From an uncultured Planctomycetales bacterium (GTDB lineage: Bacteria; Omnitrophota; Gorgyraeia; Zapsychrales; Fredricksoniimonadaceae), in assembly GCA_964483785.1 (NCBI GenBank), contig CAZACW010000002.1, forward strand, positions 16,666-80,665: a DNA stretch of 64,000 bases, given 5' to 3'. A model generated the notes under the pieces. It ran no database searches and was not told where the DNA came from. It worked only from the letters and a program-made list of their open reading frames with translations. Position numbers and translations under genes: made by a program. The stretch's first letter is position 1. Every line of letters starts with the position of its first letter. This document shows positions 40,513 through 64,000 of this stretch, piece by piece.

Positions 40513-41388
40513 ATGATGAAAAACATCAGGATCATTCCGCGTCTGGACATCAAGGGGCCCAATTTGGTCAAGGGCATCCATTTGGAAGGCCTGCGTGTCT
40601 TGGGCCGGCCCCAGGACTTTGCCCGGCATTATTATGAGGCCGGCGCGGATGAATTGATTTATATGGACGTGGTGGCCAGCCTTTATAACCGCAACAGCCT
40701 GCATGATATCATCACCAAGACCGCCAAGGAAATTTTCATTCCCTTGACAGTGGGAGGAGGATTGAGAACCATCGAGGATATCCGCCGGGTCTTAAGGGCC
40801 GGTGCGGACAAGGTTTCATTAAACACAGCGGCCATAAGTCATCCGGATTTTATCCGTGAGGCCGCGCGCATGTTCGGCTCCTCCACCATTGTCGTGGCCA
40901 TTGAGGCCATCCGTCAGCCCGATGGCCGGTACCTGGCGTATACAGACAATGCCCGGGAATACACAGGGGTGGAAGTGCTGGCCTGGGCCGGGAAGGTCCA
41001 GGAGCTGGGCGCCGGTGAAATCCTTTTGACCTCGGTGGACCGTGAAGGCACGGGCACAGGATATGACCTGGAGCTGATCAGGTCCGTGGCTGAAGCTGTC
41101 TCCATTCCGGTCATTGCCTCCGGCGGGCCAGGGCAATTGAACGATATCCAGAAGGCCATCCTGCAGGGAAAGGCGGATGCCGTGGCGGTTGCCTCCATGC
41201 TCCATTACGAAACCATCAAGCATCTGCGGGCGGATTTGGATTCCTATCAAGAGGGCAATGTGGAATTTTTAAAAAGCGGCCGGGAATTCACCAAATGCCG
41301 GCCCTGCTCCATTTTGCAGATCAAGCAATATTTAAACCAGCAGGATATTCCCTGCCGGTATCAGCCTAAGGAAGCTGTTCATGTTTGA
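40513..41388 (+). CDS. HisF-like cyclase subunit (WbuZ-type, amidine formation on N-acetyl sugars)
   Basis: TIM-barrel HisF motifs ([20 protein letters not shown]). It is located next to the HisH-like and WbuX-like genes. Confidence 0.75.
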
Positions 41389-42064: not shown

Positions 42065-43269
42065 CAACAGCATTGGAAGTCAAATACGGCCTGCCGGCGA
42101 CGGTGGTTTTTTGCAAGCACTGCGTGATGTCCAACCAGCGGCCGACCTCGGCGGTGGAATTCAAGCACACGATCAACAGCCGCAAGAACACCCTGCATAT
42201 CCATGAAGACGGGATATGTGATGCCTGCTCTTATGCAAAAGAGAAGCTTAAGATCGACTGGAAAAAGCGCGAGGAAGAGCTGCTGCGGCTGCTGGACAAA
42301 TACCGCCGCAAGGATGGGCATTATGACTGCCTTGTGCCCGGCAGCGGCGGCAAGGACAGCGCCTATCAGGCCCATGTGCTCAAATACAAGTACGGGATGC
42401 ATCCTTTGACCGTCACCTGGTCGCCCCTGATGTATACGGATTACGGCTATAAGAATTTCAGGAATTGGCTGGATATCGGCGGTTTTGACAATATCAGCTT
42501 TTACCGCAACGGCAAGGTGATGAAATTATTGACAAGGCTTGGCATCGAAAATCTTTTGCATCCTTTTCAGACCTTTATTTTGGGGCAGAAAAACCTGGGC
42601 CCCAAACTGGCTGCCCAATTCGGCATCCCGCTGGTGTTTTACGGGGAGTGCGAGGCTGAATACGGCAATCCCATTGCGGACAACACCCGCTCCTTGAGGG
42701 ACAAATCCTACCATACCTTCAAAAACATCGATGACGTTTACCTGGGAGGCATTTCCGTCAGGGAGTTGAAGGAGCGCCACCACATCGACATGGAAGAGCT
42801 GATGTGCTTTCTGCCGGCGGACGCGGCCCAGCTGGAAAAAGCGGCCGTGGAGGTCCATTATTTGGGCTATTACCTGAAATGGACGCCGGAGGAGGTCTAT
42901 TATTATGCCGTGGAAAATACCGGATTCCAGGCGCGGCCTTTCCGGTCCCAGGGCACCTACAGCAAATACAACAGCATTGATGACAAAATCGATGATCTGC
43001 ACTACTATACCTTATACATCAAATTTGGGCTTGGCCGGGCCACCTATGACGCTTCCCAGGAAATCCGCAACAACCACATCACCCGTGAAGAAGGGGTGGC
43101 CCTGGTCAAGAAATTCGACGGTGAATTTCCGGACAGATATTTCCGCGAGGTCATGGAGTATATCGGCATGAAGCCGGAAAAGTTCATGGAGCTCTGCGAC
43201 CAGTTCCGCTCGCCGCATCTCTGGGAGCAGGTTGACGGTCAATGGAAATTACGTTACACTGTTTGGTAA
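42061..43269 (+). CDS. N-acetyl sugar amidotransferase (WbuX/PseA-like PP-loop ATPase)
   Basis: PP-loop SGGKDS motif and a length of about 400 aa. Its stop overlaps the HisH-like gene. Confidence 0.75.
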   Translation: MTTALEVKYGLPATVVFCKHCVMSNQRPTSAVEFKHTINSRKNTLHIHEDGICDACSYAKEKLKIDWKKREEELLRLLDKYRRKDGHYDCLVPGSGGKDSAYQAHVLKYKYGMHPLTVTWSPLMYTDYGYKNFRNWLDIGGFDNISFYRNGKVMKLLTRLGIENLLHPFQTFILGQKNLGPKLAAQFGIPLVFYGECEAEYGNPIADNTRSLRDKSYHTFKNIDDVYLGGISVRELKERHHIDMEELMCFLPADAAQLEKAAVEVHYLGYYLKWTPEEVYYYAVENTGFQARPFRSQGTYSKYNSIDDKIDDLHYYTLYIKFGLGRATYDASQEIRNNHITREEGVALVKKFDGEFPDRYFREVMEYIGMKPEKFMELCDQFRSPHLWEQVDGQWKLRYTVW

Positions 43270-47734: not shown

Positions 47735-48519
47735 TCGATTACCGCCGCATGTTTTCGCTCGCCGGCAAGGCCGTGGTGGTGACCGGAGGCTGCGGCTTGC
47801 TGGGCCGTGAAATCGTGACTGCCTTGGCCCAGGCCGGGGCCAGGGTCGTGATCGCGGACATTAATGCCAAGCAGGGACGGCAGCTGGCCAAGATATTGGG
47901 GCAGGAAGGCCTGAAGGTCTTTTACTGTCCTTTGGACATCACGGCTATCAAAGATCTCAAGGCCAACATGCAAACGCTCTTCCGCCGGCAGGGCCCCATT
48001 CACGGCTGGATCAATTGCGCCTATCCCAGGACCAAGGATTGGGGGGCCAAGGCCGAGCATATCCGCTCAAGGTCCTGGCAAAAAAACATCGACATGCATT
48101 TGAATGCGTATGCCTTAAGTTCCCTCTATGCCGCCCAGGCCCTCAAGAAAACCAAAGGATGCATCATCAATTTAGGGTCCATTTACGGGTCAGTGGGTCC
48201 GGATTTCAGCATCTATGAAGATACCAAGATGACCATGCCTGCCGCCTATGCAGCGATCAAGGGCGGCATCGACAGCATGGGCCGGTACCTGGCTTCGTAT
48301 GTCGGGCCCTTTGGCGTCAGGGTGGCCACGGTCTGCCCCGGCGGAATTTATGACGGTCAAGATCCCTCCTTCGTCAAGAAATACGCGGCCAAAACCTGCC
48401 TCAAGCGCATGGCCAAGGCCCAGGAAGTGGCCTCGGTCGTGGCCTTTCTCGTCTCAGACGCTGCTTCTTATATTACAGGGGCCACCATTATGGTGGATGG
48501 GGGTTGGACAGCTGTTTAG
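47731..48519 (+). CDS. Short-chain dehydrogenase/reductase (PtmA-like)
   Basis: VVVTGGCGLLG glycine-rich motif and a YAAIKGG catalytic YxxxK region. Confidence 0.75.
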   Translation: MIDYRRMFSLAGKAVVVTGGCGLLGREIVTALAQAGARVVIADINAKQGRQLAKILGQEGLKVFYCPLDITAIKDLKANMQTLFRRQGPIHGWINCAYPRTKDWGAKAEHIRSRSWQKNIDMHLNAYALSSLYAAQALKKTKGCIINLGSIYGSVGPDFSIYEDTKMTMPAAYAAIKGGIDSMGRYLASYVGPFGVRVATVCPGGIYDGQDPSFVKKYAAKTCLKRMAKAQEVASVVAFLVSDAASYITGATIMVDGGWTAV

Positions 48520-50108
48520 GCGCCGGTGAAGTGGTCGGTGGCCAGGTTGCCGGTCTCCCGGTCGATGCAATACCAAATGCCGTTGTAATTGGTGGTCTGG
48601 TGCTCGAACCAGATCACGCCTGCCTCACGGATATGCGGCCAGCAATCCTTGAAAATATCGTCCCCGTGGATCACCGCAACTCCATTTAAAACACGGATCG
48701 GGTAATGGTTGATCACATGCTCGGTGCCGGTGTCTGTAAAGATCCGCAGGGTGATGGTATTGTCCGGGTTGGTGGCGCAGCCGCCGGCCGTGATAATGGC
48801 GTAATCATTGCGGAAGGCCTTGAAAATCGGCGCCATTTTCAGGCAGCGGTAGGATTTCGGCTGCGGGTTGGAATCATTGTACAGGCCATAGGATGATTCG
48901 GTGTGGGTCTGGTCAGCCAGGCGATTTGAGCCCCGGTAATACACATGCACGTAACAGATCGGTTTGACGGCAAATTCATTCACATCACGCTTGAATTCCA
49001 CCACACAATTGACGCTGCCCTGGATGTCTTCCTTTGCGAAAACCTTGGCCAGATCGCATCCTGATTGATCATCCTGAAAAACGACGTCCCGGCTGGAAAT
49101 CAGCGCGCCGTCTTCCGTGAACAGCTTCAGGGTCATGGCCTCTACGGGGAAACCGATTTCATCCTCGCTGATGCGCAGCAGGGGCGCGTTGTGTTTAAAA
49201 TTCGGTATGTAAAAGCCGGTGGTGCAAGGATGAGGATGACGGTTGGCGGATGGCGTATTTTTGATATTGCGCCGGTTGCTGTTGCAATTGTCATGCCAGA
49301 TGGCCAGGGGAATGCCGTCTCCGTCATGGATGATGCAAAAGCCGTTGGCCCCTTTCAAGGGGGATTTAGTCTGGGCCACGGTGAACAATGCCTTGGGGCC
49401 GACAGCCTCAATGTCCTGCCGGGAACCGGCGAAATTGGACAGATAGGCCATGTGGCCGTCGGGCAGATAACCGCGGTAACAGAGGCTCGTGCGCGGCAAA
49501 TAGGACTTTAACGGCGCTGGGATGGAATGTACGCCGGCCATCAGCCCCTTGGCCTGGTCATGGAAAAAGACAAAGAACCTAAATTCGTTTTCCGGGGTCT
49601 TGAGGCGCGGATGAAAGACTTCTAAAAGCACGATACCTTGCTCCGGCAGGGCCGCGGCATCAGCCTCATGGCCGATAGTATTGAAATATTTCACTTCATT
49701 GGGCTTGAACACATACTGTTTGGACCAAAAATGCTCATTTTCCTTCATGATGGAGAGGCGGATCAAAAGAGGGTCCCGGATGCTGTAATTGCGCTGGCAA
49801 AAATTAAACAGCAGGATATGGGTGATGCCTTTTCGGAAAGGGACATAGGCACTGACAAAGGCCGAAGCAGCATCAGGCACCATATCTTCGGGACTGGTCT
49901 GCCCGTAGTAGGCCGAGAACAGGGTGGGCATGAATTTTTCCGGCGGGATGATCTTGGCTTGAGGATATTGTTTGAGGTAATGCGCCTGCAGGACCCGGTT
50001 GTAATAGGGCGGGCAGGCCTTGAAGTATTTGACGGCCAGCTCATTGGTTTTTTCCAGGCCGATCCATTTCGAGAGCAATTCGATTTTTGACATAAAGATT
50101 TCCTTCAA
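48516..50108 (-). CDS. Large hypothetical protein (530 aa) on the opposite strand. I recognise no domain.
   Basis: An uninterrupted ORF convergent with the upstream array, with an AT-rich promoter region on its 5' side. No motif is recognised. Confidence 0.5.
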   Translation of the reverse strand: MKEIFMSKIELLSKWIGLEKTNELAVKYFKACPPYYNRVLQAHYLKQYPQAKIIPPEKFMPTLFSAYYGQTSPEDMVPDAASAFVSAYVPFRKGITHILLFNFCQRNYSIRDPLLIRLSIMKENEHFWSKQYVFKPNEVKYFNTIGHEADAAALPEQGIVLLEVFHPRLKTPENEFRFFVFFHDQAKGLMAGVHSIPAPLKSYLPRTSLCYRGYLPDGHMAYLSNFAGSRQDIEAVGPKALFTVAQTKSPLKGANGFCIIHDGDGIPLAIWHDNCNSNRRNIKNTPSANRHPHPCTTGFYIPNFKHNAPLLRISEDEIGFPVEAMTLKLFTEDGALISSRDVVFQDDQSGCDLAKVFAKEDIQGSVNCVVEFKRDVNEFAVKPICYVHVYYRGSNRLADQTHTESSYGLYNDSNPQPKSYRCLKMAPIFKAFRNDYAIITAGGCATNPDNTITLRIFTDTGTEHVINHYPIRVLNGVAVIHGDDIFKDCWPHIREAGVIWFEHQTTNYNGIWYCIDRETGNLATDHFTGA

Positions 50109-52385: not shown

Positions 52386-54185
52386 ATGGCGCAGATTTTT
52401 GTTATTCATGATCCTGCCTATTTCAAGGCCTCGGCCCTGGATTGTATCGTTTTGCCGACGGAGCAGGGCCTGGATGCATTATTGTCCAAGGGCCTGATTG
52501 GCCCCTTACAGGTTCCAGCTTATACCGAGAAAGAACGCTCGGCCTTTATCCAGGATTATACGGCCTTGATCGCCTCCCTAAATGCCCGTTTTAAGGACCA
52601 GTTTCTCTGGTGGGCCACGGACCTTTCTTCCAAAAACAGCTATGTTTGTCCTGTCCCTGACCTGGTCCAGGAATTGCTGATGATTGAAAGAAGTCTTTCA
52701 GCCTGTCCGGATCAGCCCTTGTTGATTGCAGGCCCTTCCATCGCCATCGAGCCGTCCTTGTCCAAACTCCTGGCCAAATGCAACCGCAGTCTGGTTTGGC
52801 CAAAGGCTGACTGGGAAAGACAAAAGCTCATGGCCCTTGGCGCGGCCCGGTCCTTGATAAGGCTATTGGTGAGGGCTGTGCGTTTTTATGCCAGATCGTT
52901 CTTGTCCCGCAGGGCCTTGTCCGAAACAGCGGGCCGCTGGCTTGACCCTCAAAAAAATTTTTACGTGATCAAGACCTTTTCCTATCCCAGCTCCTGGGAC
53001 AAAGAAGGCGCTTACACGGACGCGTTTTTCGGCCCCTTGCCGAAACATCTTGCTGCATCCAACCAGGTGCTGATTTTAAGTTACCATTGGCATTGTTTTG
53101 GGGAATTTATAAAGCGCCTCAAGCAGGAAACGGCCTGGAAGATCCTTCCGGTGGAATTCTTTATCAATGGCGGTGATGTTTTCCGCGCCGTGATCAGGAT
53201 TTTAAGTTTCAGAATTGAGCTCAAGGAGCCGGTCTTGTTCAAGGACCTGGATGTGACGGATCTCATCCGTTTCGAGTTGGCCAGGACCCTCAACGGCATC
53301 CAGATCTTCCAGCTTTTGCATTACGATGCCCTTCGTCATCTCATCCGGCAGGTGCCGCTGAAGGATTTTCTCATGACCTTTGAGAACAATCCATGGGAGA
53401 GGATGTGCCTGATGGCCTTGCGCAAGCACAGCCCGTCGACCAAGCTTTTGGGTTACCAGCATTCCGTGGTGCCCCAGGCGGCCTTGAATATGTTTGTCCA
53501 TCCTAATGAAAAGAACATCGTGCCGCTGCCGGACAGGATCCTGACAACCGGCGAGCTGTCCCGCGGCATTCTCAGGGCATACGGGGATTACGGGCAGGTG
53601 CCCATTCTCAGCAGCTGCGCCCTGCGTTATGAATATTTATTTGCCGCCGGGCCGAAGGCGCGCTCTAAATCCCAGGGGCATCTTTTGCTGGTGTTAGACG
53701 GGGTTGACCAGACGTTTCAGATGCTGCAGTATGTGTTAAAAGAAATCAGAGGGGCAGAGGGCTGCCGGTTGAGGATCAGGTGCCACCCGGCGCTGCCATG
53801 GTCTTTGCTGACAAGGAAACACCCCATGGACATGGCTTGTCTGTCCCAGGTGGAAATCTCCAAGGAGAGCCTGGCCCAAGACCTGGAGTGGGCCGACGTG
53901 CTGATGTACTGGCAAAGCGCGGTTGTGCTGGAAGCTGTCAGCCGGGGGATCCCGGCTGTCAATTTCAGGCCTGAAGGCCTGTTAAGCTATGATCCATTGT
54001 TTCTGACCGATGCCTTTCAATGGACGGTCACGCCGCAGGAGAGGCTCTTGGCCGCCCTCAAGGCCGTCGAGGCCATGGATGACCGGGAATTCCGGCGCAG
54101 AGCCGATGCGGCCTCGGCCTGGGTGCGCAGTTATTTCCATCCCGTGACCCCTCAAAGCCTGGCCTTATTTGAAATTGACGGGTAG
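52386..54185 (+). CDS. Large hypothetical protein (599 aa), possibly GT-B-like
   Basis: The C-terminal VLEAVSRGIPAVNF segment resembles a GT-B motif. It starts 19 nt after the repeat pair. Confidence 0.35.
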   Translation: MAQIFVIHDPAYFKASALDCIVLPTEQGLDALLSKGLIGPLQVPAYTEKERSAFIQDYTALIASLNARFKDQFLWWATDLSSKNSYVCPVPDLVQELLMIERSLSACPDQPLLIAGPSIAIEPSLSKLLAKCNRSLVWPKADWERQKLMALGAARSLIRLLVRAVRFYARSFLSRRALSETAGRWLDPQKNFYVIKTFSYPSSWDKEGAYTDAFFGPLPKHLAASNQVLILSYHWHCFGEFIKRLKQETAWKILPVEFFINGGDVFRAVIRILSFRIELKEPVLFKDLDVTDLIRFELARTLNGIQIFQLLHYDALRHLIRQVPLKDFLMTFENNPWERMCLMALRKHSPSTKLLGYQHSVVPQAALNMFVHPNEKNIVPLPDRILTTGELSRGILRAYGDYGQVPILSSCALRYEYLFAAGPKARSKSQGHLLLVLDGVDQTFQMLQYVLKEIRGAEGCRLRIRCHPALPWSLLTRKHPMDMACLSQVEISKESLAQDLEWADVLMYWQSAVVLEAVSRGIPAVNFRPEGLLSYDPLFLTDAFQWTVTPQERLLAALKAVEAMDDREFRRRADAASAWVRSYFHPVTPQSLALFEIDG

Positions 54186-54212: not shown

Positions 54213-54818
54213 ATGGACAATCATTTAAGTTTGAGCGCCAAAATCCTCCGGGAAATCAAGGACTATGGCCTATGGCTCCTGCAGGGCGTGCCCGGGGCGC
54301 TCGGCGTCAAATTAAGGCGCTTGTGCTTACGGCCCTGTTTTTTCAAATGCGGGGCCGGCTTAGTCATGGCCAAAGATTGCGTGGTCAAAGGCTTTAAAAA
54401 GATCACCTTAGGGGACCATGTCAGCTTCGGCCCCTGGACCCAGGTCTATGCCGAGGGCACCGAGGGAGGGATTGAGATCGGCGATCATGTCTCCACCAAT
54501 GCCAATGTGATGATCAATGCCGACAACGGCGGGTCCATTAAAATCGGAGACCATGTCATGATCGGGCCCAATGTGGTGCTGCGGGCCTCCAACCACCATT
54601 TTGCCCGGAAAGACATGACCATAGACGCCCAAGGCCATCAGCCGGGGTCCATCGTCATCAAGGAGGATGTGTGGCTCGGTGCCAATGTGGTTGTTGTGCC
54701 CAATGTCGTGATCGGACAAGGGGCGATCGTCGGGGCCGGGGCCGTGGTGACCAAGGATGTCGAAGATTACACCATTGTCGGCGGAGTTCCTGCCAAGAAA
54801 ATCGGGGTCAGAGATTAG
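54213..54818 (+). CDS. Hexapeptide-repeat O-acetyltransferase (maltose/galactoside acetyltransferase-like)
   Basis: Repeats IGDHVSTNANVMINA...IGDHVMIGPNVVL...VWLGANVVVVPNVVIGQGAIVGAGAVV. Confidence 0.75.
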   Translation: MDNHLSLSAKILREIKDYGLWLLQGVPGALGVKLRRLCLRPCFFKCGAGLVMAKDCVVKGFKKITLGDHVSFGPWTQVYAEGTEGGIEIGDHVSTNANVMINADNGGSIKIGDHVMIGPNVVLRASNHHFARKDMTIDAQGHQPGSIVIKEDVWLGANVVVVPNVVIGQGAIVGAGAVVTKDVEDYTIVGGVPAKKIGVRD

Positions 54819-54819
54819 C

Positions 54820-56418
54820 ATGTCAAGATACGCGCTTACCAGCCTTATCCTGGTCCTGGTCTTTTTGGGGATTTGGTTTGCGCGGGCCTCCAGCTTCGGC
54901 ATTTATGGAGATGAGACATTTCACCTCAGCTGGGCCGAGGGCATAGCCCGTACGGGTTCCTGCCATTTTGCCTGGGACACGGCCCTGGATCAACCCATCC
55001 CCAAGGACCTCAAAGAAAATCACGGCTTATTGCCCACCTATCTGTTCAGCTTGTCCTTTCATTTTCCCGTTGACCATGTCCTGTGGAGCCGATTCGTATG
55101 CTTGATCTTCACCCTGGCCACGTACGGGACCATCCTCTATTATTTCCGCCGAAGAGGCATGCTGACGGCGCAGCGCCTTTTTGTTTGGACGGCCTTGTTT
55201 TTCGGCTCTGCCGTTATTTTGGATCTGTCCTATTACATCCGCACCTATGCCATCCTGGGCACAGCCACGGCCTTGATCTTGATCCTGTACTGGGAAGGCC
55301 TGATGCGTTTGCAGCAAAATCAGAGGCAGGCATGCATCCGGCTGTGGGCCTTGGGCATGCTCCTGTTTCTTGTGACCGTGATTGACCAATGGCAGATTGA
55401 ACAAATCCCGGCCTTGGTTTTCGGGGTATTGACCGGTATTCTTTATTTGGATCCGCAACATAAGAGTTTATTGAATGGTTTTAAAAAATGGATTGGGTGG
55501 ATTTTATGGGGCCTGATTTTATTTTCCCCCCTTTTGATCCAGAATTACCAAATCCTAAAGTGGATCAAATTGCAGAATACCCAGGTTTTTATCCCCCAGC
55601 ACCATTCCAGTTTCTGGGACAATCTGGTAGGGTGGCTTCGTTTTGTCCTGGGGATCAACGTCGGGCTTTTATCCCTGGACTGGGCCTTGCGGTCCATGGA
55701 AAAACTGAGCTTTGACAGATGGATCTTCATCAACGGCTTGTTCACAGCCATTGTCTGCCTTCTTTACAACAGTGTGCTGCATGTATTTTTTCCGAAATAT
55801 GTTTATCTGCCGCTTTTGATGATGCTGATCGGCTGGGCCGGGTTTTGGGAAGATTTTTTAAAGCAGACAAAATTGAAATCCTGGGCCCTGGTGCTTTACC
55901 TGCTGGTCAATGGGCTGATGTCCTGGGTCAATGTGTATGAACACAGCAATGTCGGCCGGCCCATCCATTGGCTGCACAGCCATCTGGACCCGCATGATGT
56001 GCTTTTGGTCTCCCAAGTCAACGATGATATACTTCGGTTTGAAGGCAGAGGGCTGTTGTCCCGCGCCCATACCGTGGACCCGAGCCAAAACATGCAGGAC
56101 ATTACTGATCTGAAGCAATATATAGCCGGCCATGCCCAGGGGAAAATCTATTATTTGTATGTGGACCATTATGCGTTTCGCCGGTGGCTTTGCCTCATGA
56201 CGATCGGCAAGGACCTTTACCCTCCCATTGATCTTTTTGCCTATTTAAGGGACCGTATTCCTTCCTCGGGCGTGATGCCGGGATTAAGGCAATGCGGCCT
56301 GATGGTCTTTGACCGTACCGAATTGTTGAATGGCCTGGACCATCTGCTGCAACAAGGTTTTGAAACCAAGCCAAGCTTTCATTTGCGTCAGTTATGGAGG
56401 CATTTTTTTAAGTATTGA
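54820..56418 (+). CDS. Polytopic membrane protein (GT-C-like glycosyltransferase, polymerase or ligase candidate)
   Basis: 532 aa with at least 10 transmembrane segments. It starts 2 nt after the acetyltransferase. Confidence 0.4.
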   Translation: MSRYALTSLILVLVFLGIWFARASSFGIYGDETFHLSWAEGIARTGSCHFAWDTALDQPIPKDLKENHGLLPTYLFSLSFHFPVDHVLWSRFVCLIFTLATYGTILYYFRRRGMLTAQRLFVWTALFFGSAVILDLSYYIRTYAILGTATALILILYWEGLMRLQQNQRQACIRLWALGMLLFLVTVIDQWQIEQIPALVFGVLTGILYLDPQHKSLLNGFKKWIGWILWGLILFSPLLIQNYQILKWIKLQNTQVFIPQHHSSFWDNLVGWLRFVLGINVGLLSLDWALRSMEKLSFDRWIFINGLFTAIVCLLYNSVLHVFFPKYVYLPLLMMLIGWAGFWEDFLKQTKLKSWALVLYLLVNGLMSWVNVYEHSNVGRPIHWLHSHLDPHDVLLVSQVNDDILRFEGRGLLSRAHTVDPSQNMQDITDLKQYIAGHAQGKIYYLYVDHYAFRRWLCLMTIGKDLYPPIDLFAYLRDRIPSSGVMPGLRQCGLMVFDRTELLNGLDHLLQQGFETKPSFHLRQLWRHFFKY

Positions 56419-56452: not shown

Positions 56453-57250
56453 TTGGGGGGGTTGGGGTTGGGTAATGCGAACATTAAATACTCCGGTCTT
56501 GGGCTTGCGCAGTTTTTTACGGGGTATAGGGATAAATGGGAGGATTTTTATCCTTCTGAGCATTGGGCCTTTGAAAAGATCATTGCTATACGGAAAACGT
56601 TCGGCCGCGTCCTGGATGTGGGCTGCGGGATGGGGGGGCTGGGCTTAGGCCTGTCCAGCCGCTGTCCAATGCGGTCCTATCTTGGGGTGGACATCAATGC
56701 CCAGGTGATTGCAGCGGCCCAGACACTCAAAGCCCGCTTTAAGGTCCCTGCGCAATTCAAATGCTGCGATATTCTCGAGGCCAAGGGGGTCCCCAAGGCA
56801 GCCTTTGATACGGTCTTTTCCTTAAGCTGTGCGGACTGGAACATTGAGACCGGCAAAATCATCGGACGCTGCTGGCAATATGTCAAACCCGGCGGATTTT
56901 TTGTGATCTCTTTAAGGCTTTCACCGGGGCCGGGGATCAATAATATCAAAAAAAGTTATCAGCCCTTTGCCTGGGACGAAAAGGGCAGGCCGGCGGAAAT
57001 CGCCAATTATGTTGTTTTTAATGCAGGGGCATTTTGGCGGATGGTGGAAGGGTTTCAACCGAGACCTTCCCATGTTTACGGCTACGGCTACTGGGGGCCG
57101 CCGTCCAAAACAGCTGTTACGCCGTATAAGAAATTAGTTTTTGGGGTTATCGTCATTCAGAAAATTTTATCGAGGGCCAGGCCGGGCCCCATTGAAGCCC
57201 ATTTGAATTTTCCGTTGGACCTTTTTCATCACGCGCAAGGACAAACATGA
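56453..57250 (+). CDS. Class I SAM-dependent methyltransferase
   Basis: VLDVGCGMGGLG motif. The start is uncertain (non-ATG). A TATAAT-containing region lies at 56430-56445. Confidence 0.55.
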   Translation: MGGLGLGNANIKYSGLGLAQFFTGYRDKWEDFYPSEHWAFEKIIAIRKTFGRVLDVGCGMGGLGLGLSSRCPMRSYLGVDINAQVIAAAQTLKARFKVPAQFKCCDILEAKGVPKAAFDTVFSLSCADWNIETGKIIGRCWQYVKPGGFFVISLRLSPGPGINNIKKSYQPFAWDEKGRPAEIANYVVFNAGAFWRMVEGFQPRPSHVYGYGYWGPPSKTAVTPYKKLVFGVIVIQKILSRARPGPIEAHLNFPLDLFHHAQGQT

Positions 57251-58317
57251 TTGAACCGAAAAAACATCTGAAAGAACTGACACGGACACCCATCACGCCG
57301 GAAGACCGCATCGGCCGGGTGCACCGCTTAGACCGCAACGAGCGCACAACGCCTTTTCCTAAGGAACATTTACAGAATATTCTAAGCTCCATCACCGTCG
57401 ATGAAATGGTGGCCTATCCTGAAGTGGAGCCTTTTTACCATAAGCTGGCCGACTGGCTGAAGGTCAAACGGGAAGAATTGCTGGTGGCCAGCGGCTCGGA
57501 CACCTCGATCAAGATGGTCTTTGAAGTCTATGTGCAGGAAGGGGACGAGGTGGTGGTGATTTCCCCCACCTACGGCATGTACGTGGTGTATTGCCGGATG
57601 TTCGGCGCCAAGGCCGTGGAAATTTTTTATAACCCGGATTTGTCCCTTCCCATCGAACGTGTCCTCTCTGCCATAACGCCTAAGACAAAACTCGTGACCA
57701 TTGCCAACCCGAACCACACCGGCACCGTGATCCCCGAGGAGGATTTGATCCGGGTGATCAAGGCCGCCCACCAGGTCAATGCCCTGGTCCTGATCGATGA
57801 GGCTTATTATCATTTTTATCCTCAGACCATGGCCGGCCATATCCATCAATATGATAACCTGATCATCATCCGCACCTTTTCCAAGGGCTTCGGCATTGCG
57901 CCCTTGCGCGTCGGCTACACCATCAGCAATACCGAAATCATCCAACAGCTTTACAAGGTCAAGCAGACCCATGATATCACCGTGGTCTCAGCCAAGGCCG
58001 GCGCCTATCTGCTGGACCATCTGCAGATCATGACCGATTATGTCCAGGAGGTTGACCGGGCCAAGGCAGTTTTATACAAGCGCCTGCCGGCCATGGGATT
58101 TGACGTGCTGCATAGCCATGCGAATTTTGTCTTTTTCAAATGCCCCTCGGGGACCGACGGCAAAAAACTTTTGGCTGATCTACAGGACATGCATATCATC
58201 CTCAAAGGGCCTTTTAACCAGTCCCCTTTCACCGGCCATTTGCGGGTCACGGTGGGCAGTGTCGAGCAGATGAACATGGTCTGTGACCAGATCCAACAAC
58301 TGATACGAAAGGCATGA
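57247..58317 (+). CDS. Class II PLP aminotransferase (HisC/CobD-like)
   Basis: Fold-type I aminotransferase pattern, including the PLP-lysine region IIRTFSKGFG. Confidence 0.7.
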   Translation: MIEPKKHLKELTRTPITPEDRIGRVHRLDRNERTTPFPKEHLQNILSSITVDEMVAYPEVEPFYHKLADWLKVKREELLVASGSDTSIKMVFEVYVQEGDEVVVISPTYGMYVVYCRMFGAKAVEIFYNPDLSLPIERVLSAITPKTKLVTIANPNHTGTVIPEEDLIRVIKAAHQVNALVLIDEAYYHFYPQTMAGHIHQYDNLIIIRTFSKGFGIAPLRVGYTISNTEIIQQLYKVKQTHDITVVSAKAGAYLLDHLQIMTDYVQEVDRAKAVLYKRLPAMGFDVLHSHANFVFFKCPSGTDGKKLLADLQDMHIILKGPFNQSPFTGHLRVTVGSVEQMNMVCDQIQQLIRKA

Positions 58318-59333
58318 TGAAGGCAGCCATCATAGGCCTGGGTTGGCAGGGGATGCGGCATTACCAGGCCCTGAAAGAATTAGGCGTCGAGCTGGCCTGT
58401 GTCGTGGACCTTAATCCCGAGGCCGCGGCCAAAAGGGTCCCTGAATTTCCGGCCGAGCGTATCTATACCAAGGCTGAGGAGGCTTTTCAAGCGCATGCTC
58501 CTGACGCGGTCATCATCGCCACGCACAGCGCGGCCCGCCTCCAGGCCGTGCGTGATACCCTGGCGGCCGGCGTCAAAAAGATTTTTTTGGAAAAGCCCAT
58601 GGCCACGACGTACAAGGACTGCCTGCAGATGAAGCGCCTGGCCCGTGAGGCAGGGTGTTTGCTGGTCGTCAATCATTTGCGCAGGTTCAGTCCCAATTAT
58701 CATCAGTTAAAGCAGGTCATTGCACAAGGGGCGATCGGCAAGGTCCGGCATCTGTATGCCCAGGCCGGTTCCGTGGGTTTGGGCAATGAAGGCACGCATA
58801 TCATCGACAAAATGCGTTTTTGTCTGGATGCGGACATAGCCTGGGTCATGGGATTCGTGGACCAAACCGGGACGCCCAATCCCCGCGGCCCCCAGTACAA
58901 AGACCCGGGCGGCTGGGGCATGATGCAGTTTAAGGACGGCACGCGCGCCTTTATCGACACCTGCGAAGACACGGGGGTTCCGCCGGTATTGGAGATTGTG
59001 GGCACCTACGGCCGGATCATCATCGAGGAATTGAACAATCATTGGGCGATTTTGGCCCGCGGCGCAGAAGACCGTAATCTGCCGCTGACCAAAATTTTGA
59101 CGCCCCTTAAGGCCGTGCCGGTTTTTCCCACCCTGCCGTGGGACGTGAAGGAATTTACCAAGATGGGCCTGCAAGAATTGATTTTCCACAATAAGGTCAG
59201 CTGCAGCGCCGAGGACGGCTGTCACGCGATCGAGGCTGTGGTGGCTCTGCACGCTTCGCACCAAAAGGGCGGCCGCAAAATCGACCTGCCCTTAGCCGAA
59301 GAATTCCACGCCTTGGAGGTGGCCTGGGCATGA
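58314..59333 (+). CDS. Gfo/Idh/MocA-family oxidoreductase
   Basis: The N-terminal AIIGLGWQGMRH motif matches the family pattern. Confidence 0.75.
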   Translation: MMKAAIIGLGWQGMRHYQALKELGVELACVVDLNPEAAAKRVPEFPAERIYTKAEEAFQAHAPDAVIIATHSAARLQAVRDTLAAGVKKIFLEKPMATTYKDCLQMKRLAREAGCLLVVNHLRRFSPNYHQLKQVIAQGAIGKVRHLYAQAGSVGLGNEGTHIIDKMRFCLDADIAWVMGFVDQTGTPNPRGPQYKDPGGWGMMQFKDGTRAFIDTCEDTGVPPVLEIVGTYGRIIIEELNNHWAILARGAEDRNLPLTKILTPLKAVPVFPTLPWDVKEFTKMGLQELIFHNKVSCSAEDGCHAIEAVVALHASHQKGGRKIDLPLAEEFHALEVAWA

Positions 59334-60115
59334 GAGACGAGTATAAAAACAAAAAGGTGGTCGGCGTCATTCCGGCGAGAATGGCGTCTTCGCGTTTTCA
59401 CGGTAAGCCCCTGGCCAAGATCCTGGGCAAGGAAATGGTCCAATGGGTCTATGAGATCTGCATGGGCTGCAAGCTCTTGAAAGAGGTCTATGTGGCCACG
59501 GACCATGAGGATATCCGCCGGTTTTGCGCAGATAAGGGCATCCGCCATCTGATGACCGCTGAAGAACATAAAAACTGCTCGGAACGCTCCAATGAGGTGT
59601 GCCAGAGATTGAAAGCGGATTATGTGGTGGAAATCCAGGGTGATGAGCCGACCTTGCTTCCGTCGGACATTGATGATTTCATCGACCGCGCCTTTGATTT
59701 CTCTGCCTTCGACATTGTCACCCAATACGCGGACATTACGCAAGACGAGGCCCATGATCCGCATAATGTCAAGATCGTCCTGGGGCAGGAAGGCCGCGCC
59801 CTGTTTTTTTCGCGCTGTCCCGTTCCCTGCAATTTCAAAAAGCGTCAGCCTCAATATTACAAACAGGTGGGCTTGTTTTTATGGCCGGCCGCAGCCATTA
59901 AACGTTTTGCTGAAACACCCAAAAGCTATTTGGAAAGCATCGAAGACACGCACATGCTGCGCATGATCGAAAACGGTTTTGATATCCGCCTCGTGCATAC
60001 CCAGATCAAAAATGTGGGCGTGGATGTGCCGGAAGATGTGCCGGAGGCGGAAGCATTTTTAAGGCAGCGCCAGGCAGCCGGCGCAGGAGCCAAGGACAAA
60101 AGCTATGTCCGATAA
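59330..60115 (+). CDS. kdsB: KdsB-family cytidylyltransferase (CMP-Kdo-synthetase-like)
   Basis: The N-terminal VVGVIPARMASSRFHGKPL segment and the GDEP motif (EIQGDEPTL). Confidence 0.7.
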   Translation: MRDEYKNKKVVGVIPARMASSRFHGKPLAKILGKEMVQWVYEICMGCKLLKEVYVATDHEDIRRFCADKGIRHLMTAEEHKNCSERSNEVCQRLKADYVVEIQGDEPTLLPSDIDDFIDRAFDFSAFDIVTQYADITQDEAHDPHNVKIVLGQEGRALFFSRCPVPCNFKKRQPQYYKQVGLFLWPAAAIKRFAETPKSYLESIEDTHMLRMIENGFDIRLVHTQIKNVGVDVPEDVPEAEAFLRQRQAAGAGAKDKSYVR

Positions 60116-61145
60116 GACCTTCAAATGCGCCATCATCGGTTACGGCTATATGGGCGAAATCCGCCGGGCCGTGATCGAGCGCCATCCCGGTCTTGAGCTG
60201 GTGGGGATCGGCGAGCCTGACCCGCAGATCGCCAAAAAAATCAGCGGCTATCCGGTATTTGAGCATTGGGAAGATCTGCTTAAAAACCCCCTGGACCTGG
60301 TCTTTGTCTGCACGCCCAATATCCATACGCCGGGCACCGTGGTCCGCTGCCTGGAGGCCGGCAAACATGTCTTTTGCGAAAAGCCTCCGGGAAGAAATCT
60401 TCAGGATATCGCCGCTATCCGCCAGGCCGAAGGGAAAGGGAATTTGAAACTGATGTTCGGCTTCAATCACCGCTGGCACCCGGGCATCCTGAAGGCCAAG
60501 GCCATGGTGGACAGCGGCCGTTTCGGACGGATCTTGAACATGCGCGGGCTCTACGGCAAATCCGGCGGGGTGCAGTTCCGTCATTCCTGGAGAAACAACA
60601 AGGACATTGCCGGCGGCGGCATTCTGCTGGACCAGGGCATCCATATGCTGGACTTGTTCCGCTTTTTCGGCGGGGAATACCAGGACATCAAGTGCTCGGC
60701 CTCCAGCGCTTTTTGGCAGTTCGACGTCGAAGACAATGCCTACGTGATTTTGCACAATCCCAACGGCATCAGCGCCACCCTGCATTCCTCAGCCACCTTT
60801 TGGAAACACACCTTTAAAATCGACATCACCTTGGACGGCGGGTATATCACGGTGGAAGGCTTTTTGTCCAAGTCCGGTAGTTACGGCCGCGAGCAATTGG
60901 TCGCGGCCAAACGCCAATTCGAGGACGAGTCCGAGGCCGTGGGCAATCCGGCCGAGGAAATCACCTATTTTGACCGGGACCTCTCCTGGGACCTGGAAGT
61001 CGCTGAATTTGTCAAATGCGTCCAGGAGAACAAACCCGTGGTCTCAGGCTCTTCCCTGGACGCCTACAAGGTCATGGACATCATCACCAAGGCATACCAG
61101 GACGCCGGGGTCCTGGCCGCCCAACCCATCAGGACAAGATCATGA
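60105..61145 (+). CDS. Gfo/Idh/MocA-family oxidoreductase
   Basis: CAIIGYGYMGEIRR motif and the EKP motif (VFCEKPPG). Confidence 0.75.
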   Translation: MSDKTFKCAIIGYGYMGEIRRAVIERHPGLELVGIGEPDPQIAKKISGYPVFEHWEDLLKNPLDLVFVCTPNIHTPGTVVRCLEAGKHVFCEKPPGRNLQDIAAIRQAEGKGNLKLMFGFNHRWHPGILKAKAMVDSGRFGRILNMRGLYGKSGGVQFRHSWRNNKDIAGGGILLDQGIHMLDLFRFFGGEYQDIKCSASSAFWQFDVEDNAYVILHNPNGISATLHSSATFWKHTFKIDITLDGGYITVEGFLSKSGSYGREQLVAAKRQFEDESEAVGNPAEEITYFDRDLSWDLEVAEFVKCVQENKPVVSGSSLDAYKVMDIITKAYQDAGVLAAQPIRTRS

Positions 61146-62149
61146 GAAATATCGTCATTCTGGATGACTTTCATCAAAGCGATTTCAAGCCCGCGGACCT
61201 TTTGAAGCAGTACATGCAGATGCTGTCCACCGACGTGTTCCGGTATCTGGTGGACGGCCAGAAGCTCGTGGAAACATCCTGCCCGGCCTGCGCCAGCGCC
61301 TCCTCGGTCAAGACCTTTGAGCGCTACCGCCTGACCTATCGCCAGTGCCAGGCCTGCGATACCCTCTATATTTCTCCGCGGCCCTCGGATGAACAGATCC
61401 ATCAGTTTTATTTGAACGCGCCCAGCTGCAAGTTTTGGAGGGAACAGCTCTCCGAAGCTTCGCGCGTCAAGCGCACGGAAAAAATCATCAAGCCCCGCCT
61501 GGAATGGGTGCTGGATTCCGCGGCGGAATATTGCCCCGCGGCCAAACATTGGGCGGACATTCACGCGGCCCAGTGGCGCTATGTGCAGGCCATGGCCGAA
61601 GCCTCCAGGCTCACGCATAAAACCCTGGTCAATCCCTATTGCCAGCTTAAAAGTACGGAAGGGATGGCGGTGGTCCGGGAGCCCTGGTGGCAGGCCGCCT
61701 TGTCCCAGCCGGCGGATATCGTCACGATTTTTGAGATCATAGACCAGGCGTCCAGGCCGTCGGACCTGCTGGCCTCGGTCAGGAACATGCTTGCCAGCGG
61801 CGGGCTGTGTTTTATGACCTGCATTCTTGCCTCGGGGTTTGATGTCAAGGAATTGGGCGTCAATGCGCAGAACATTTATCCGCCGGACCGGCTCAATTGT
61901 TTTTCCGTCAAAGGGATCAAGTCCCTGATCGACCGCCACGGCTTTGAGTGCTTGGAGCTTAGCACGCCGGGCATCCTGGACATCGAGATCGTGGCCAAGG
62001 CCTTGAAGGACAATCCTCAGCTGGCACTTTCGGCCTTTATCAAGGATTTGGTGCTGAATCAGCCGGATGAAGTCAAACGTTCCTTCCAGGAATTTTTGCA
62101 GGCCAATTTGCTCAGTTCCTATGGACGGATTTTAATCAGGAAAATTTAA
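61142..62149 (+). CDS. Methyltransferase-like protein with an N-terminal zinc ribbon (CPAC...CQAC)
   Basis: Two CxxC pairs are followed by a Rossmann-like core. Its ATGA start overlaps the upstream stop. Confidence 0.45.
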   Translation: MRNIVILDDFHQSDFKPADLLKQYMQMLSTDVFRYLVDGQKLVETSCPACASASSVKTFERYRLTYRQCQACDTLYISPRPSDEQIHQFYLNAPSCKFWREQLSEASRVKRTEKIIKPRLEWVLDSAAEYCPAAKHWADIHAAQWRYVQAMAEASRLTHKTLVNPYCQLKSTEGMAVVREPWWQAALSQPADIVTIFEIIDQASRPSDLLASVRNMLASGGLCFMTCILASGFDVKELGVNAQNIYPPDRLNCFSVKGIKSLIDRHGFECLELSTPGILDIEIVAKALKDNPQLALSAFIKDLVLNQPDEVKRSFQEFLQANLLSSYGRILIRKI

Positions 62150-62150
62150 C

Positions 62151-62759
62151 ATGGACTATATCCGGCGTTATCTTCAAGAAGCAGGGCAGATTTTAAACAG
62201 CATCGACCAGCAGCGGATCGAGCAGATGATTGAAATCTTGCTCGGCGTGCGCGCGCAAGGGGGCCGCTTGTTTTTTTTGGGCGTGGGCGGCAGCGCCGGC
62301 AACTGTTCGCACGCGGTGAATGATTTCCGCAAGATCGGCGGCTTTGAGGCCTACACGCCGGCGGACAATGTCTCGGAATTGACGGCCCGCACCAATGATG
62401 AGGGCTGGGACACCGCCTTTGCCGCCTGGCTCAAAGGCTCGCGCCTGCGCGCGGGCGACTGCGTCTGGGTCTTTTCCGTCGGCGGGGGCAGCCGGGAGAA
62501 AAACGTGAGCGCCAATTTGGTCTATGCCCTGGATTACGCCAAGGCCCAGAAGGCCAAAATCATCGGCGTGGTGGGCCGCGACGGAGGCTACACGGCCAAG
62601 CTCGCCGATGCCTGCGTGATCGTCCCTCCGGCGGCCGCGGACACCGTCACGCCGCACGCGGAATCTTTTCAGGCCGTGATCTGGCACTTGATCGTTTCCG
62701 AGCCGCGGATCATGCAGATGAGCAATAAATGGGAATCCTTGGGCGTTTCCCCACGATAG
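62151..62759 (+). CDS. gmhA: Phosphoheptose (sedoheptulose-7-phosphate) isomerase, SIS domain
   Basis: RLFFLGVGGSAGNCSHAVND is the SIS-domain signature of GmhA. Confidence 0.8.
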   Translation: MDYIRRYLQEAGQILNSIDQQRIEQMIEILLGVRAQGGRLFFLGVGGSAGNCSHAVNDFRKIGGFEAYTPADNVSELTARTNDEGWDTAFAAWLKGSRLRAGDCVWVFSVGGGSREKNVSANLVYALDYAKAQKAKIIGVVGRDGGYTAKLADACVIVPPAAADTVTPHAESFQAVIWHLIVSEPRIMQMSNKWESLGVSPR

Positions 62760-62767: not shown

Positions 62768-63445
62768 ATGGCTATATTTTTAGACAGCAGCAAACTGGAA
62801 GAGATTAAAAAATACAAGGCCATGGGCATTGTACGGGGCATCACCACCAACCCTTCCATTTTATGGAAGGAAGGGGTCACCGGCGGCATGGCCGGGGTCA
62901 AGGCCCGCATCATCGAGATCGCCAAGCTGGTGGACCCCTTGCCGGTGTCCACCGAAGTGATGACCAATGACCCGCCAGAGATGATGAAGCAGGCCAGGGA
63001 TTTCGCTTCTTGGGCCCGCAATATCAACGTCAAAATCACCATCCACGGCCCCAACGGCGAGCTGGACAATCTGGCCCTGGTGCATGAGCTGGAAACCAAG
63101 GCCAATATCCGCGTCAATGTCACGGCCATGATGAGCGCCCAGCAATGCCTGCTGGCGGCCCTGGCCGGCGCCTCGTATGTCTCGCTCTTCGCCGGACGCG
63201 TCAACAATATGGGCTATGACGCAATCCATGAGATCAGGCTTTTGCGGTCCTTGCTGGATGCGCACAAACTCAAGGCCCAGATCATCGCCGCCTCCACCCG
63301 CGAGATTTTGAATGTGGTGCAATGGCTGGAGGCCGGGGCGCATATCGTCACCGTCCTGCCTGCTTTTCTCGACGGCATGATCGTGCACCCGTATTCCAAG
63401 GAAACCGTCAAGATGTTCTTAGAGGATGCCGCTAAAAACAAATAA
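62768..63445 (+). CDS. Transaldolase / fructose-6-phosphate aldolase family (short TalC/FSA type)
   Basis: The N-terminal AIFLDSS..EEIKKY...GITTNPS segment. The ATG is preceded by an SD-like GGAG. Confidence 0.75.
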   Translation: MAIFLDSSKLEEIKKYKAMGIVRGITTNPSILWKEGVTGGMAGVKARIIEIAKLVDPLPVSTEVMTNDPPEMMKQARDFASWARNINVKITIHGPNGELDNLALVHELETKANIRVNVTAMMSAQQCLLAALAGASYVSLFAGRVNNMGYDAIHEIRLLRSLLDAHKLKAQIIAASTREILNVVQWLEAGAHIVTVLPAFLDGMIVHPYSKETVKMFLEDAAKNK

Positions 63446-64000
63446 TGCCGTTTGCCAGCGTTACCGCGCCCTCATCCTGGATTTTGACGGTGTTTTAGTC
63501 GAGTCGAATGCCGTCAAGGACAAGGCCTTTGCCCTGGTCTTCGCGGATCATCCCGGACATTTGCAAGAGATCATGGAGTATCACCGCGGGACCAGTTTGA
63601 TCCGGTTTGAGAAATTCCGCCATATCGTTGAAAACATCTTGAGGCGGCCGTATACGCCCCAGCTGCAGGATGAACTGGCCGCTCAATTTTCACAGTATTG
63701 CATCCAGGAAGTTTCAGCCTGTCCCTGGGTCAAAGGCGCGGCGGAATTCCTGGAGGCCTTTTCCCGGCACAGGCCGTTGTACTTAGTCTCCATCAATCCG
63801 ATGGAGGATTTGAAGGAAATATTGGCCCGCCGCGGATTGACGGCGTATTTTAAAAAAGTCTACGCGGCCCGCGCCAGCAAAACGCCCCAGCTTAAGGAAA
63901 TCCTGGCAGAGGAAAACATGGCCTCGAGCGAAGCTGTTTTTATCGGGGATTCCCTCAACGATTATCACAGCGCCCGGGAGGCGGGGATGGATTTTATCGG
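63426..64000 (+). CDS. HAD-superfamily phosphatase (GmhB-like candidate), 3'-partial at the window edge
   Basis: The DxD motif I (ILDFDGVL) lies near the N-terminus and the later GDS.ND motif is also present. The ORF runs off the window end. Confidence 0.6.
   Translation, partial: MPLKTNNAVCQRYRALILDFDGVLVESNAVKDKAFALVFADHPGHLQEIMEYHRGTSLIRFEKFRHIVENILRRPYTPQLQDELAAQFSQYCIQEVSACPWVKGAAEFLEAFSRHRPLYLVSINPMEDLKEILARRGLTAYFKKVYAARASKTPQLKEILAEENMASSEAVFIGDSLNDYHSAREAGMDFI

Follow-up and report, generated by a model that had tools for sequence, protein, structure and literature searches.

To our knowledge, the sugars activated with cytidine monophosphate (CMP) form a very small group, made up of sialic and other nonulosonic acids, 3-deoxy-D-manno-octulosonic acid (Kdo) and 2-keto-3-deoxynononic acid (Kdn). 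These activated sugars shape how hosts and phages see bacterial surfaces. The enzymes KdsB and KpsU (EC 2.7.7.38) serve lipopolysaccharide (LPS) and capsule, respectively. In Shewanella, 8-amino-Kdo (Kdo8N) is reportedly formed by the oxidase KdnB and the aminotransferase KdnA, before KdsB acts. Sugar amination by a Gfo/Idh/MocA dehydrogenase paired with an aminotransferase is found in the NtdC/NtdA/NtdB pathway to kanosamine and in the GnnA/GnnB, WlbA/WlbC and RifL/RifK/RifM systems; NtdB and RifM are HAD phosphatases acting on a sugar phosphate. The lincosamide octose is formed with the help of the transaldolase LmbR and the isomerase LmbN. The present study deals with a block of six genes at positions 56453-62149 of a 64,000-nucleotide stretch of DNA from an uncultured Planctomycetales bacterium (contig CAZACW010000002.1), called the window throughout. 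This block combines a KdsB-family cytidylyltransferase with an aminotransferase and two Gfo/Idh/MocA oxidoreductases. It may belong to a pathway of its own, leading to a second sugar acid that is activated with CMP, resembles Kdo and carries nitrogen, and that is destined for a surface polysaccharide, beside a legionaminic-type sugar. We put this forward tentatively, as a reading whose chances fall a little short of even.

The locus resembles each of the described systems in part. With KdsB and KpsU, its cytidylyltransferase shares the full-length Pfam family, the P-loop and the ligands Q96, D98 and D225. However, it is about 35% identical to them, shows the switches N94E, K/R162F, R/K180A and E/D201H, and has an aminotransferase as partner instead of kdsA/kdsC or kpsC/kpsS. 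The Kdo8N pathway would follow the same logic, in which an ulosonic acid is oxidised, transaminated and activated with CMP. Yet the enzymes are non-homologous (Gfo/Idh/MocA dehydrogenases and a HisC-like class I/II aminotransferase), and the module adds an isomerase, a 2-hydroxyacid dehydrogenase, a phosphatase and a cytidylyltransferase clade of its own. As in the Ntd, Gnn, Wlb and Rif pairs, a Gfo-family dehydrogenase stands beside an aminotransferase dependent on pyridoxal phosphate (PLP), here in overlapping genes (57247-59333), and the HAD phosphatase of the locus may act like NtdB and RifM. The aminotransferases of those pairs are nevertheless of the DegT/DnrJ type and their products UDP-linked or free, whereas the aminotransferase of the window is of the HisC type and its product would be CMP-activated. 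Finally, a short transaldolase adjoins a SIS-family isomerase, as in the LmbR/LmbN case. Here, however, the pair is accessory, being present in the comparative loci L040 and L068 and absent from L002, L003 and L005, and no GDP-type nucleotidyltransferase or kinase follows. A search of the literature found no description of this gene combination. The gene set is a variant of the CMP-ulosonic-acid pathways.

A distinct clade of KdsB-type cytidylyltransferases

Gene families were called by Pfam and NCBIfam profile searches of the window's open reading frames (ORFs). These searches bear out the families that an earlier note on this DNA had given to six plus-strand ORFs, with the KdsB-family cytidylyltransferase lying between two Gfo/Idh/MocA genes and an aminotransferase upstream (Table 1). 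Since orthologues with 46-85% identity occur in the same gene order in at least 11 independent contigs, the six ORFs are genuine genes rather than chance reading frames. The match of the cytidylyltransferase to PF02348 is full length (140.1 bits, profile positions 2-217 of 217). With 246 bits for KdsB models and 22 for PseF, the enzyme is of the KdsB/KpsU type rather than of the NeuA/LegF/PseF type. It passes the cutoff of the subfamily model NF003952 (246.6 against 193) and stays below those of NF009905 (246.5 against 255) and of the kdsB equivalogs TIGR00466 (130.1 against 155.2) and NF003948 (154.8 against 281). Its best solved relative is the E. coli capsule enzyme KpsU (1gq9, 143 bits). 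Among database homologues, a break in identity separates about 68 cluster representatives at 46% or more from all others, at 43% or less. In a neighbour-joining tree of KdsB sequences rooted on the NeuA-like enzyme of the window, the clade containing the window enzyme is monophyletic in 100 of 100 bootstraps, with a mean identity of 58% inside the clade and of 35% to other KdsBs. The earlier note had proposed a phylogeny as a check; in this tree the clade stands apart from the other KdsBs.

The residues of KpsU and KdsB that bind CTP, metal and sugar have been described (PMC2901514; PMC12199768). Q96 hydrogen-bonds a ring hydroxyl of Kdo (PMC12199768), and Kdo is bound by the C-terminal domain of KdsB (PMC3149649); the list of Kdo contacts that we drew from these three papers is partial. 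The ligands R10, R15, K19, Q96, D98 and D225 (KpsU numbering) are all present in the window enzyme. Among the 67 members of the clade, R15, K19, Q96 and D98 are invariant, D225 is kept by 63 and R10 by 65, the remaining two being alignment gaps. On the other hand, the clade has a signature of its own, consisting of E94, F162, W178, A180, D199, T200 and H201, at which positions other KdsBs have N, K/R, F/Y, R/K, S/D, an aliphatic residue and E/D, respectively. E94 is found in all 67 members, F162 in 65, H201 in 64 and A180 in 58, whereas position 201 is acidic in 50 of the 50 other KdsBs compared. Neither KpsU and ordinary KdsB nor the aldolase-type relatives described below have this signature. 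Most of its positions fall in the C-terminal, Kdo-binding domain, where two basic side chains are lost and acidic ones are gained. To judge from these residues, the pocket may be adapted to a sugar acid bearing a cationic amino substituent.

A search for KdsA homologues, whose positive control worked, found none in the 70.5 kb of this locus and none in eight related ones. A kdsA homologue lies near KdsB in 10 of 80 metagenome KdsB loci scanned, and Capsule_synth neighbours occur only beside a non-clade enzyme (P0069). The cytidylyltransferase belongs to a separate clade, has a changed residue signature and has no kdsA nearby; as far as sequences tell, it is not an ordinary housekeeping KdsB. 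No member of this clade was found in the plasmid and phage collections. Named members of the module all come from metagenome-assembled genomes (MAGs) of uncultured Omnitrophica or Planctomycetales.

Association of the clade with an aminotransferase

The clade loci comprise the window, L002, L003/L004, L005, L006, L008, L009, L013, L015, L094-L096 and a contig from the JGI. L002 belongs to an Omnitrophica MAG and L005 to a Planctomycetales MAG (78% identity); L008 and L009 show 56% and 46% identity, respectively. L094-L096 are a 327-kb contig and two closed ones, ERZ21829562 ctg258081l (4.46 Mb) and ERZ28763718 ctg125476 (4.08 Mb). A scan of genome contigs found two relatives only, in one Planctomycetales MAG and one Omnitrophota MAG. 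Wherever the sequence flanking a clade locus is long enough, the aminotransferase gene adjoins that of the cytidylyltransferase or lies one Gfo gene away. As a control, a metagenome scan was made with generic KdsB motifs, which recovered mostly ordinary KdsBs. The aminotransferase was found in none of 77 non-clade metagenome KdsB loci, and about 62 of these 77 are without any of the partner genes of the module. Across loci, the aminotransferase, usually together with an extra Gfo gene, occurs only with the clade. Such a pattern is in keeping with an oxidation and a subsequent transamination that supply a sugar acid for activation with CMP.

The extra Gfo gene is seen in 8 of 9 informative loci and belongs to either of two unrelated lineages. 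The lineage of the window, GfoA1, has orthologues in L005 (80%), L094 (66%) and L009 (42%), and is replaced by GfoA2 in L002, L003 and L008. GfoA1 is restricted to modules containing the aminotransferase and is absent from aldolase-type modules, whereas the orthogroup of the second enzyme, GfoB, is common to the latter. GfoB shows 40-67% identity across L002, L003, L008, L009, L010, L040, L045 and L068, and 52% to its L094 counterpart. Its nearest solved relatives are secondary-alcohol dehydrogenases of pyranoses and inositol, and inositol 2-dehydrogenase models give the best score for both Gfo enzymes of the window. Beyond the Gfo genes, the recurring core consists of the aminotransferase, the cytidylyltransferase, GfoB, a GmhA-like SIS isomerase, a 2-hydroxyacid dehydrogenase and one enzyme for phosphate removal. 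The last position is filled by a HAD phosphatase, an IMPase-like protein, or a short-chain dehydrogenase/reductase (SDR) together with an AroB-like 'cyclizing phospho-lyase' (TIGR04425, 397.7 bits), which replace one another.

The best model for the aminotransferase is the hisC model TIGR01141, on which it reaches 248.9 bits, below the cutoff of 276.55; its scores on other hisC models are far under their cutoffs. It has no match to PF01041, the DegT/DnrJ/EryC1 family. Compared with E. coli HisC (1fg3), it keeps the PLP lysine, in SK(G/A)F, as well as DEAY, (S/N)PN(N/H) and the C-terminal arginine of LR(I/V)TVG, while the arginine of ILRD is replaced by lysine; we take the roles of these motifs to be those known from HisC structures. 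About 95 cluster representatives are found at 44% identity or more, the named ones all coming from Omnitrophica MAGs. Its neighbours are glycan genes and not histidine-biosynthesis genes, so that the other check of the earlier note, whether the aminotransferase lies among his genes, gives a negative answer. The aminotransferase is clade-specific, and not a housekeeping HisC. HisF-like and HisH-like genes do occur in the window, at 40504-42064, and behind them lies the gene of the N-acetyl-sugar amidotransferase WbuX (345 bits); the whole span is 40504-43269. They are partners of WbuX, in a trio forming the acetamidino group of a legionaminic-type sugar, and not histidine genes.

Aldolase-type sister modules

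A non-clade minority of KdsB-like enzymes lies in a sister module, at L010, L040, L045, L052, L065, L068 and L091, of which no description was found in the literature. This module combines an HpcH/HpaI class II pyruvate aldolase with a KdsB-like enzyme and a 2-hydroxyacid dehydrogenase, and many copies also have GfoB, the zinc-ribbon protein MT2, SIS, HAD, SDRs and a transaldolase. The aldolase is present and there is no aminotransferase. From 60105 on, the window is collinear with L040 (43-68% identity), but L040 has the aldolase, and its own KdsB-like gene sits where the window's operon has a second SIS gene, SIS2. The sister module has the look of a pathway that reaches a 3-deoxy-ulosonic acid without KdsA. 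Its KdsB-like enzymes fall outside the clade, keep D201 and, in most cases, K/R162. Since these enzymes, which have no aminotransferase beside them, lack the changes, the pocket signature of the clade tracks the aminotransferase. A clade locked to an aminotransferase in uncultured bacteria of the Planctomycetes-Verrucomicrobia-Chlamydiae group, together with an aldolase-bearing sister, points to at least one unrecognised acidic sugar, made possibly by a route without KdsA-type synthases.

A third kind of aldolase is paired with a KdsB paralogue in the cultured roseobacter Leisingera sp. M527. On its plasmid NZ_CP081038.1 (L093, 7371-10373), a polysaccharide cluster encodes a KdsB-like enzyme together with a HAD hydrolase and an 'aldolase catalytic domain' protein.

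A possible pathway

As judged from motifs and profiles, the cytidylyltransferase belongs to the KdsB family and has an intact catalytic site. In the pathway favoured here, it would catalyse the last step, in which a 2-ulosonic acid that resembles Kdo, but is not plain Kdo, receives CMP on its anomeric hydroxyl. The nitrogen would be brought by the HisC-like aminotransferase. A Gfo/Idh/MocA dehydrogenase would provide the ketone for this reaction, and the intermediate would most likely be phosphorylated. HisC-type enzymes aminate a carbonyl beside CH2-O-phosphate. Such an amination would fit the module because a phosphatase or a phospho-lyase always accompanies the aminotransferase. The phosphate would then be removed by the HAD phosphatase or, in other loci, by the IMPase-like phosphatase or through elimination by the AroB-like phospho-lyase with the SDR; the mutual replacement of these genes suggests this shared role. 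The class I methyltransferase and an acetyltransferase may decorate the sugar, and the GT-B-fold protein encoded upstream would be a candidate transferase.

As to the carbon skeleton, no kdsA, neuB-type or HpcH aldolase gene belongs to the module, and two routes may be envisaged. Either Kdo-8-phosphate would be borrowed from the housekeeping pathway, or a ketose phosphate would be isomerised by the GmhA-like SIS enzyme, with the help of the transaldolase in this window. In the latter case, the Gfo enzyme shared with the sister modules would oxidise C1, and the dehydrogenase resembling phosphoglycerate dehydrogenase (PGDH) would oxidise C2, giving a 2-keto acid. Members of the 2-hydroxyacid dehydrogenase family interconvert aldonates and 2-keto-aldonates. 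A complete aldolase-free sequence, in which a 3-hydroxy-2-ulosonate phosphate is aminated beside the phosphate in the HisC manner, dephosphorylated and activated with CMP by the clade enzyme, is quite unlikely in our view. If true, it would mean that many Omnitrophota- and Planctomycetota-like bacteria share a novel biosynthetic route, and that its product represents a novel class of amino sugar acids activated with CMP.

Several points weigh against the proposed pathway. No enzyme of the module has been shown to make a 2-keto acid, and the route from a ketose phosphate is chemical reasoning. The nearest solved relatives of GfoB oxidise ring secondary alcohols, not C1. The aminotransferase is very HisC-like, whereas known pathways of a comparable kind use DegT-family enzymes to aminate sugars. 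Together with the phosphatase and the PGDH-like dehydrogenase, the HisC-like enzyme could equally form an amino-acid branch resembling SerA/SerC/SerB or PdxB/SerC. Moreover, the signature residues were placed in the pocket from motifs and not from coordinates. The idea of a second CMP-activated, aminated ulosonic acid, put forward in the earlier note, is plausible. What stands of it is a distinct cytidylyltransferase clade tied to the aminotransferase and Gfo genes; the identity of the product is a proposal.

Alternative explanations

The earlier note had also drawn an analogy with 8-amino-Kdo. The logic, carried out by non-homologous enzymes, is indeed the same, but the partners in the module (the GmhA-like isomerase, the PGDH-like dehydrogenase, the phosphatase or AroB-like phospho-lyase and, here, the transaldolase) point to sugar-phosphate chemistry inside the module rather than to the tailoring of free Kdo. 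Nothing shows that the substrate is Kdo or that the amine sits at C8. It may nevertheless be imagined that Kdo or Kdo-8-phosphate made by housekeeping kdsABCD is oxidised by a Gfo enzyme, transaminated and activated by the paralogous cytidylyltransferase, the other genes serving for supply or decoration. The module is without a skeleton-forming aldolase, the occurrence of the Gfo and aminotransferase pair correlates with that of the clade, neither the catalytic site nor Q96 has changed, and the SIS and HAD enzymes could take the roles of KpsF and KdsC. Such tailoring would, however, leave the 2-hydroxyacid dehydrogenase, present in every module, without a role. Furthermore, the SIS enzyme is of the GmhA type rather than the KdsD/KpsF type, and the HAD phosphatase is of type IA, with no match to the KdsC family. 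Among the genes of the block there is no Kdo 8-oxidase of the Fe-dependent alcohol dehydrogenase type exemplified by KdnB, the dehydrogenases being Gfo/Idh/MocA, SDR and 2-Hacid_dh proteins, and no DegT-type aminotransferase. Kdo tailoring is unlikely, although it deserves some consideration. In another scheme, also unlikely, the dehydrogenase, aminotransferase and phosphatase would convert a phosphorylated hydroxy-acid into an amino acid or amino-polyol, with which a sugar is then decorated, the CMP-activated acid itself being free of nitrogen. The logic of serine or pyridoxal phosphate synthesis mentioned above would apply, as phosphoglycerate dehydrogenase gives the dehydrogenase its best score (220.8 bits), the HisC chemistry beside a phosphate is suitable, and both HAD-type and IMPase-type phosphatases occur. 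Nonulosonic-acid genes adjoin most loci, and the decorated sugar could be a legionaminic-type acid. Yet no such genes are seen in L009 (about 6 kb upstream) or in L094 (10 kb on each side). The dehydrogenase is also found in aldolase-type modules devoid of the aminotransferase, which shows that the two are not obligate partners; the aminotransferase is physically coupled to the cytidylyltransferase and not to the dehydrogenase, and the clade-specific pocket signature tracks it.

An acceptor other than an ulosonic acid may also be considered, either an aminocyclitol, made by the AroB-like cyclase and an inositol-dehydrogenase-like Gfo enzyme, or a phosphate ester that would become a CDP-linked head group. 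The inositol 2-dehydrogenase models that come out on top for both Gfo enzymes, the AroB-like 'cyclizing phospho-lyase' and IMPase-like genes of sister loci, and the change in the clade of several residues otherwise invariant in KdsB would agree with this. Conversely, the residues that position the sugar 2-hydroxyl and the metals are all intact, the AroB-like gene is absent from the window, L002, L005 and L008, and we know of no member of this Pfam family of cytidylyltransferases with a CDP-linked product; such an acceptor is very unlikely. That an ordinary LPS-type housekeeping KdsB and a HisC have come together by chance is close to refuted. The score of the aminotransferase near the hisC cutoff would be in keeping with it, but at least 11 contigs keep the pair, at identities as low as 46% and in glycan clusters throughout, with no kdsA or his genes nearby; the cytidylyltransferase forms a separate clade with its own signature, and most of the other KdsB loci (about 62 of 77, as mentioned) have none of the partner genes. 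Histidinol or serine synthesis and an aminoshikimate-like branch were considered as well. The view that the module is a decayed mosaic having lost its aldolase is weakened by the conservation of aldolase-free versions, at 46-80% identity, across many contigs. Automatic annotation will label the two enzymes 'KdsB' and 'HisC', and will thereby inflate the apparent LPS- and histidine-pathway content of MAGs.

Organization of the locus

Along the block, neighbouring starts and stops overlap by 4-20 nt, and by 4-11 nt within the six genes first described, as is typical of an operon. A public contig of 14,141 bp (L001) is identical to the window over an overlap of 7,596 bp and adds nine genes past the window end. 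These include two SDRs, SIS2 and the PGDH-like 2-hydroxyacid dehydrogenase, then a hexapeptide acetyltransferase, a radical-SAM/SPASM enzyme, a GT2 and one more gene. The block was thought to end at 62149. It continues through the SIS, transaldolase and HAD genes and beyond the window, and is the left half of a longer operon conserved in uncultured bacteria.

Table 1. Features of the operon, of its upstream neighbours and of the sister modules. Positions are those of the window unless a locus is named.
Feature	Position	Strand	Basis or remark
Class I SAM-dependent methyltransferase	56453..57250	+	Pfam Methyltransf_25/11/31
HisC-like class I/II PLP aminotransferase	57247..58317	+	Aminotran_1_2, 163 bits
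Gfo/Idh/MocA oxidoreductase GfoA1	58314..59333	+	Pfam GFO_IDH_MocA
KdsB/KpsU-family cytidylyltransferase (clade enzyme)	59330..60115	+	CTP_transf_3, 140 bits
Gfo/Idh/MocA oxidoreductase GfoB	60105..61145	+	Pfam GFO_IDH_MocA and C-terminal domains
Zinc-ribbon, methyltransferase-fold protein MT2	61142..62149	+	Weak Methyltransf_23 match
SIS_2 (GmhA-like) sugar-phosphate isomerase SIS1	62151..62759	+	Pfam SIS_2; gmhA model, 50 bits
Short-type transaldolase	62768..63445	+	TAL_FSA, 132 bits; start is the exact public gene call
HAD-IA phosphatase	63426..64000 (cut by window end; whole gene, L001 7022-7702)	+	Pfam HAD_2/Hydrolase
Hexapeptide-repeat acetyltransferase	54213..54818	+	Pfam Hexapep
Conserved GT-B-fold protein, candidate transferase	52386..54185	+	Predicted structure; no Pfam match
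Conserved uncharacterised protein, 729 aa	50175..52364	+	No Pfam match
Sister module, L010	6210-12076		
Sister module, L040	2151-11115		
Sister module, L068	3047-11285		

Two methyltransferases, dependent on S-adenosylmethionine (SAM), had been thought to flank the cytidylyltransferase. The Pfam matches uphold the first one. Its orthologues (52-69%) lie directly upstream of the aminotransferase in L003, L005, L006, L013 and L094, and it is the first gene of a conserved unit of methyltransferase, aminotransferase, optional Gfo and cytidylyltransferase. MT2, at the other end, does carry the expected four-cysteine zinc ribbon (CPAC...CQAC), but no recognisable SAM motif. In the family alignment the glycine-rich GxGxG loop (motif I) is lost in all members examined, so that the label 'methyltransferase' is uncertain as read from the sequence. 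MT2 homologues occur in L005, L010, L040, L068 and L094 and are kept in both module types; a family conserved in spite of the loss of its SAM loop may have a non-methylating role. The start of this gene had been placed at 61016. The public gene call and the length of the homologues, all about 335 aa, put it at 61142, which gives a protein of 335 aa and an overlap of 4 nt with the preceding stop.

SIS1 is 60-68% identical to the products of genes adjoining the transaldolase in L040 and L068. It is accessory, as is the transaldolase, both being absent from L002, L003 and L005, the last of which is the closest relative. The transaldolase has the Schiff-base lysine and, where fructose-6-phosphate aldolases (FSA) have tyrosine, a phenylalanine; it is closest to the transaldolases 1vpx, 3r8r and 3s0c (1e-30, against 1e-12 for FSA). 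SIS2 keeps His, Asp, Glu and His at the metal and catalytic positions of GmhA. Orthologues of the HAD phosphatase are found in L005 and L040. Hexapeptide acetyltransferase homologues lie inside the module in L002 (44%), L003 and the JGI contig, and the acetyltransferase upstream of the block possibly carries out N- or O-acetylation of the sugar. Past the window end, at L001 10778-11356, a 195-nt gap precedes the hexapeptide acetyltransferase, which is called at only 127 aa, whereas its L003 homologue has 192 aa; its start is probably mis-called, or the gene is N-terminally truncated.

Upstream genes and surroundings

The module loci lie in polysaccharide clusters with GT2, Wzy-like, Wzx-like and ABC genes. 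In the window, the upstream neighbour is a GDP-GlcNAc-type legionaminic-acid pathway, with its own PseF/NeuA-like CMP synthetase and the WbuX/HisF/HisH trio. The window is one very large surface-glycan locus, and not a histidine or LPS-core region.

Two large conserved proteins are encoded upstream of the module. The one nearer to the module (599 aa) has no Pfam match, no sequence match in the PDB and a weak match to TIGR04326. Its AlphaFold2 model has a mean confidence (pLDDT) of 93.8 and, in Foldseek searches, retrieves GT-B glycosyltransferases (E values of 1e-10 to 1e-7); the model shows a GT-B fold plus an extra N-terminal region. The gene is syntenic, upstream of the module, in L002, L003, L005, L013 and the JGI contig. 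On the strength of this model, the protein is a plausible candidate for the transferase of one of the two CMP sugars. The 729-aa protein before it likewise has no sequence match in the PDB, and its single-sequence AlphaFold model (pLDDT 36) gives no usable fold. Its orthologues, at 38-44% identity, occupy the same position in L002, L003, L005 and L013. Between the acetyltransferase and the methyltransferase, at 54757-56418, a polytopic membrane protein of 553 aa without family match could be a polymerase, a ligase or a membrane glycosyltransferase. A lone ORF of 530 aa on the minus strand (48516-50108), with no Pfam or NCBIfam match, breaks the one-directional array between the two CMP-sugar blocks.

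Farther upstream, at 10112-34702, lies a third sugar-modifying set, with a B12-radical-SAM enzyme, two epimerase/dehydratases and three DegT aminotransferases. It also contains a cytidylyltransferase-like domain fused to a PfkB kinase (14476-16011), a split transketolase (19209-21071), an APH-like kinase, a zinc-dependent alcohol dehydrogenase, a sugar C-methyltransferase, a radical-SAM/SPASM enzyme, a sulfotransferase, an IMPase-like phosphatase and an ABC exporter. Finally, genes for B12-dependent methionine synthase and methylenetetrahydrofolate reductase are found on the minus strand at 3283-7874, just upstream of this glycan locus with its many enzymes of the SAM-, radical-SAM- and B12-dependent kinds.

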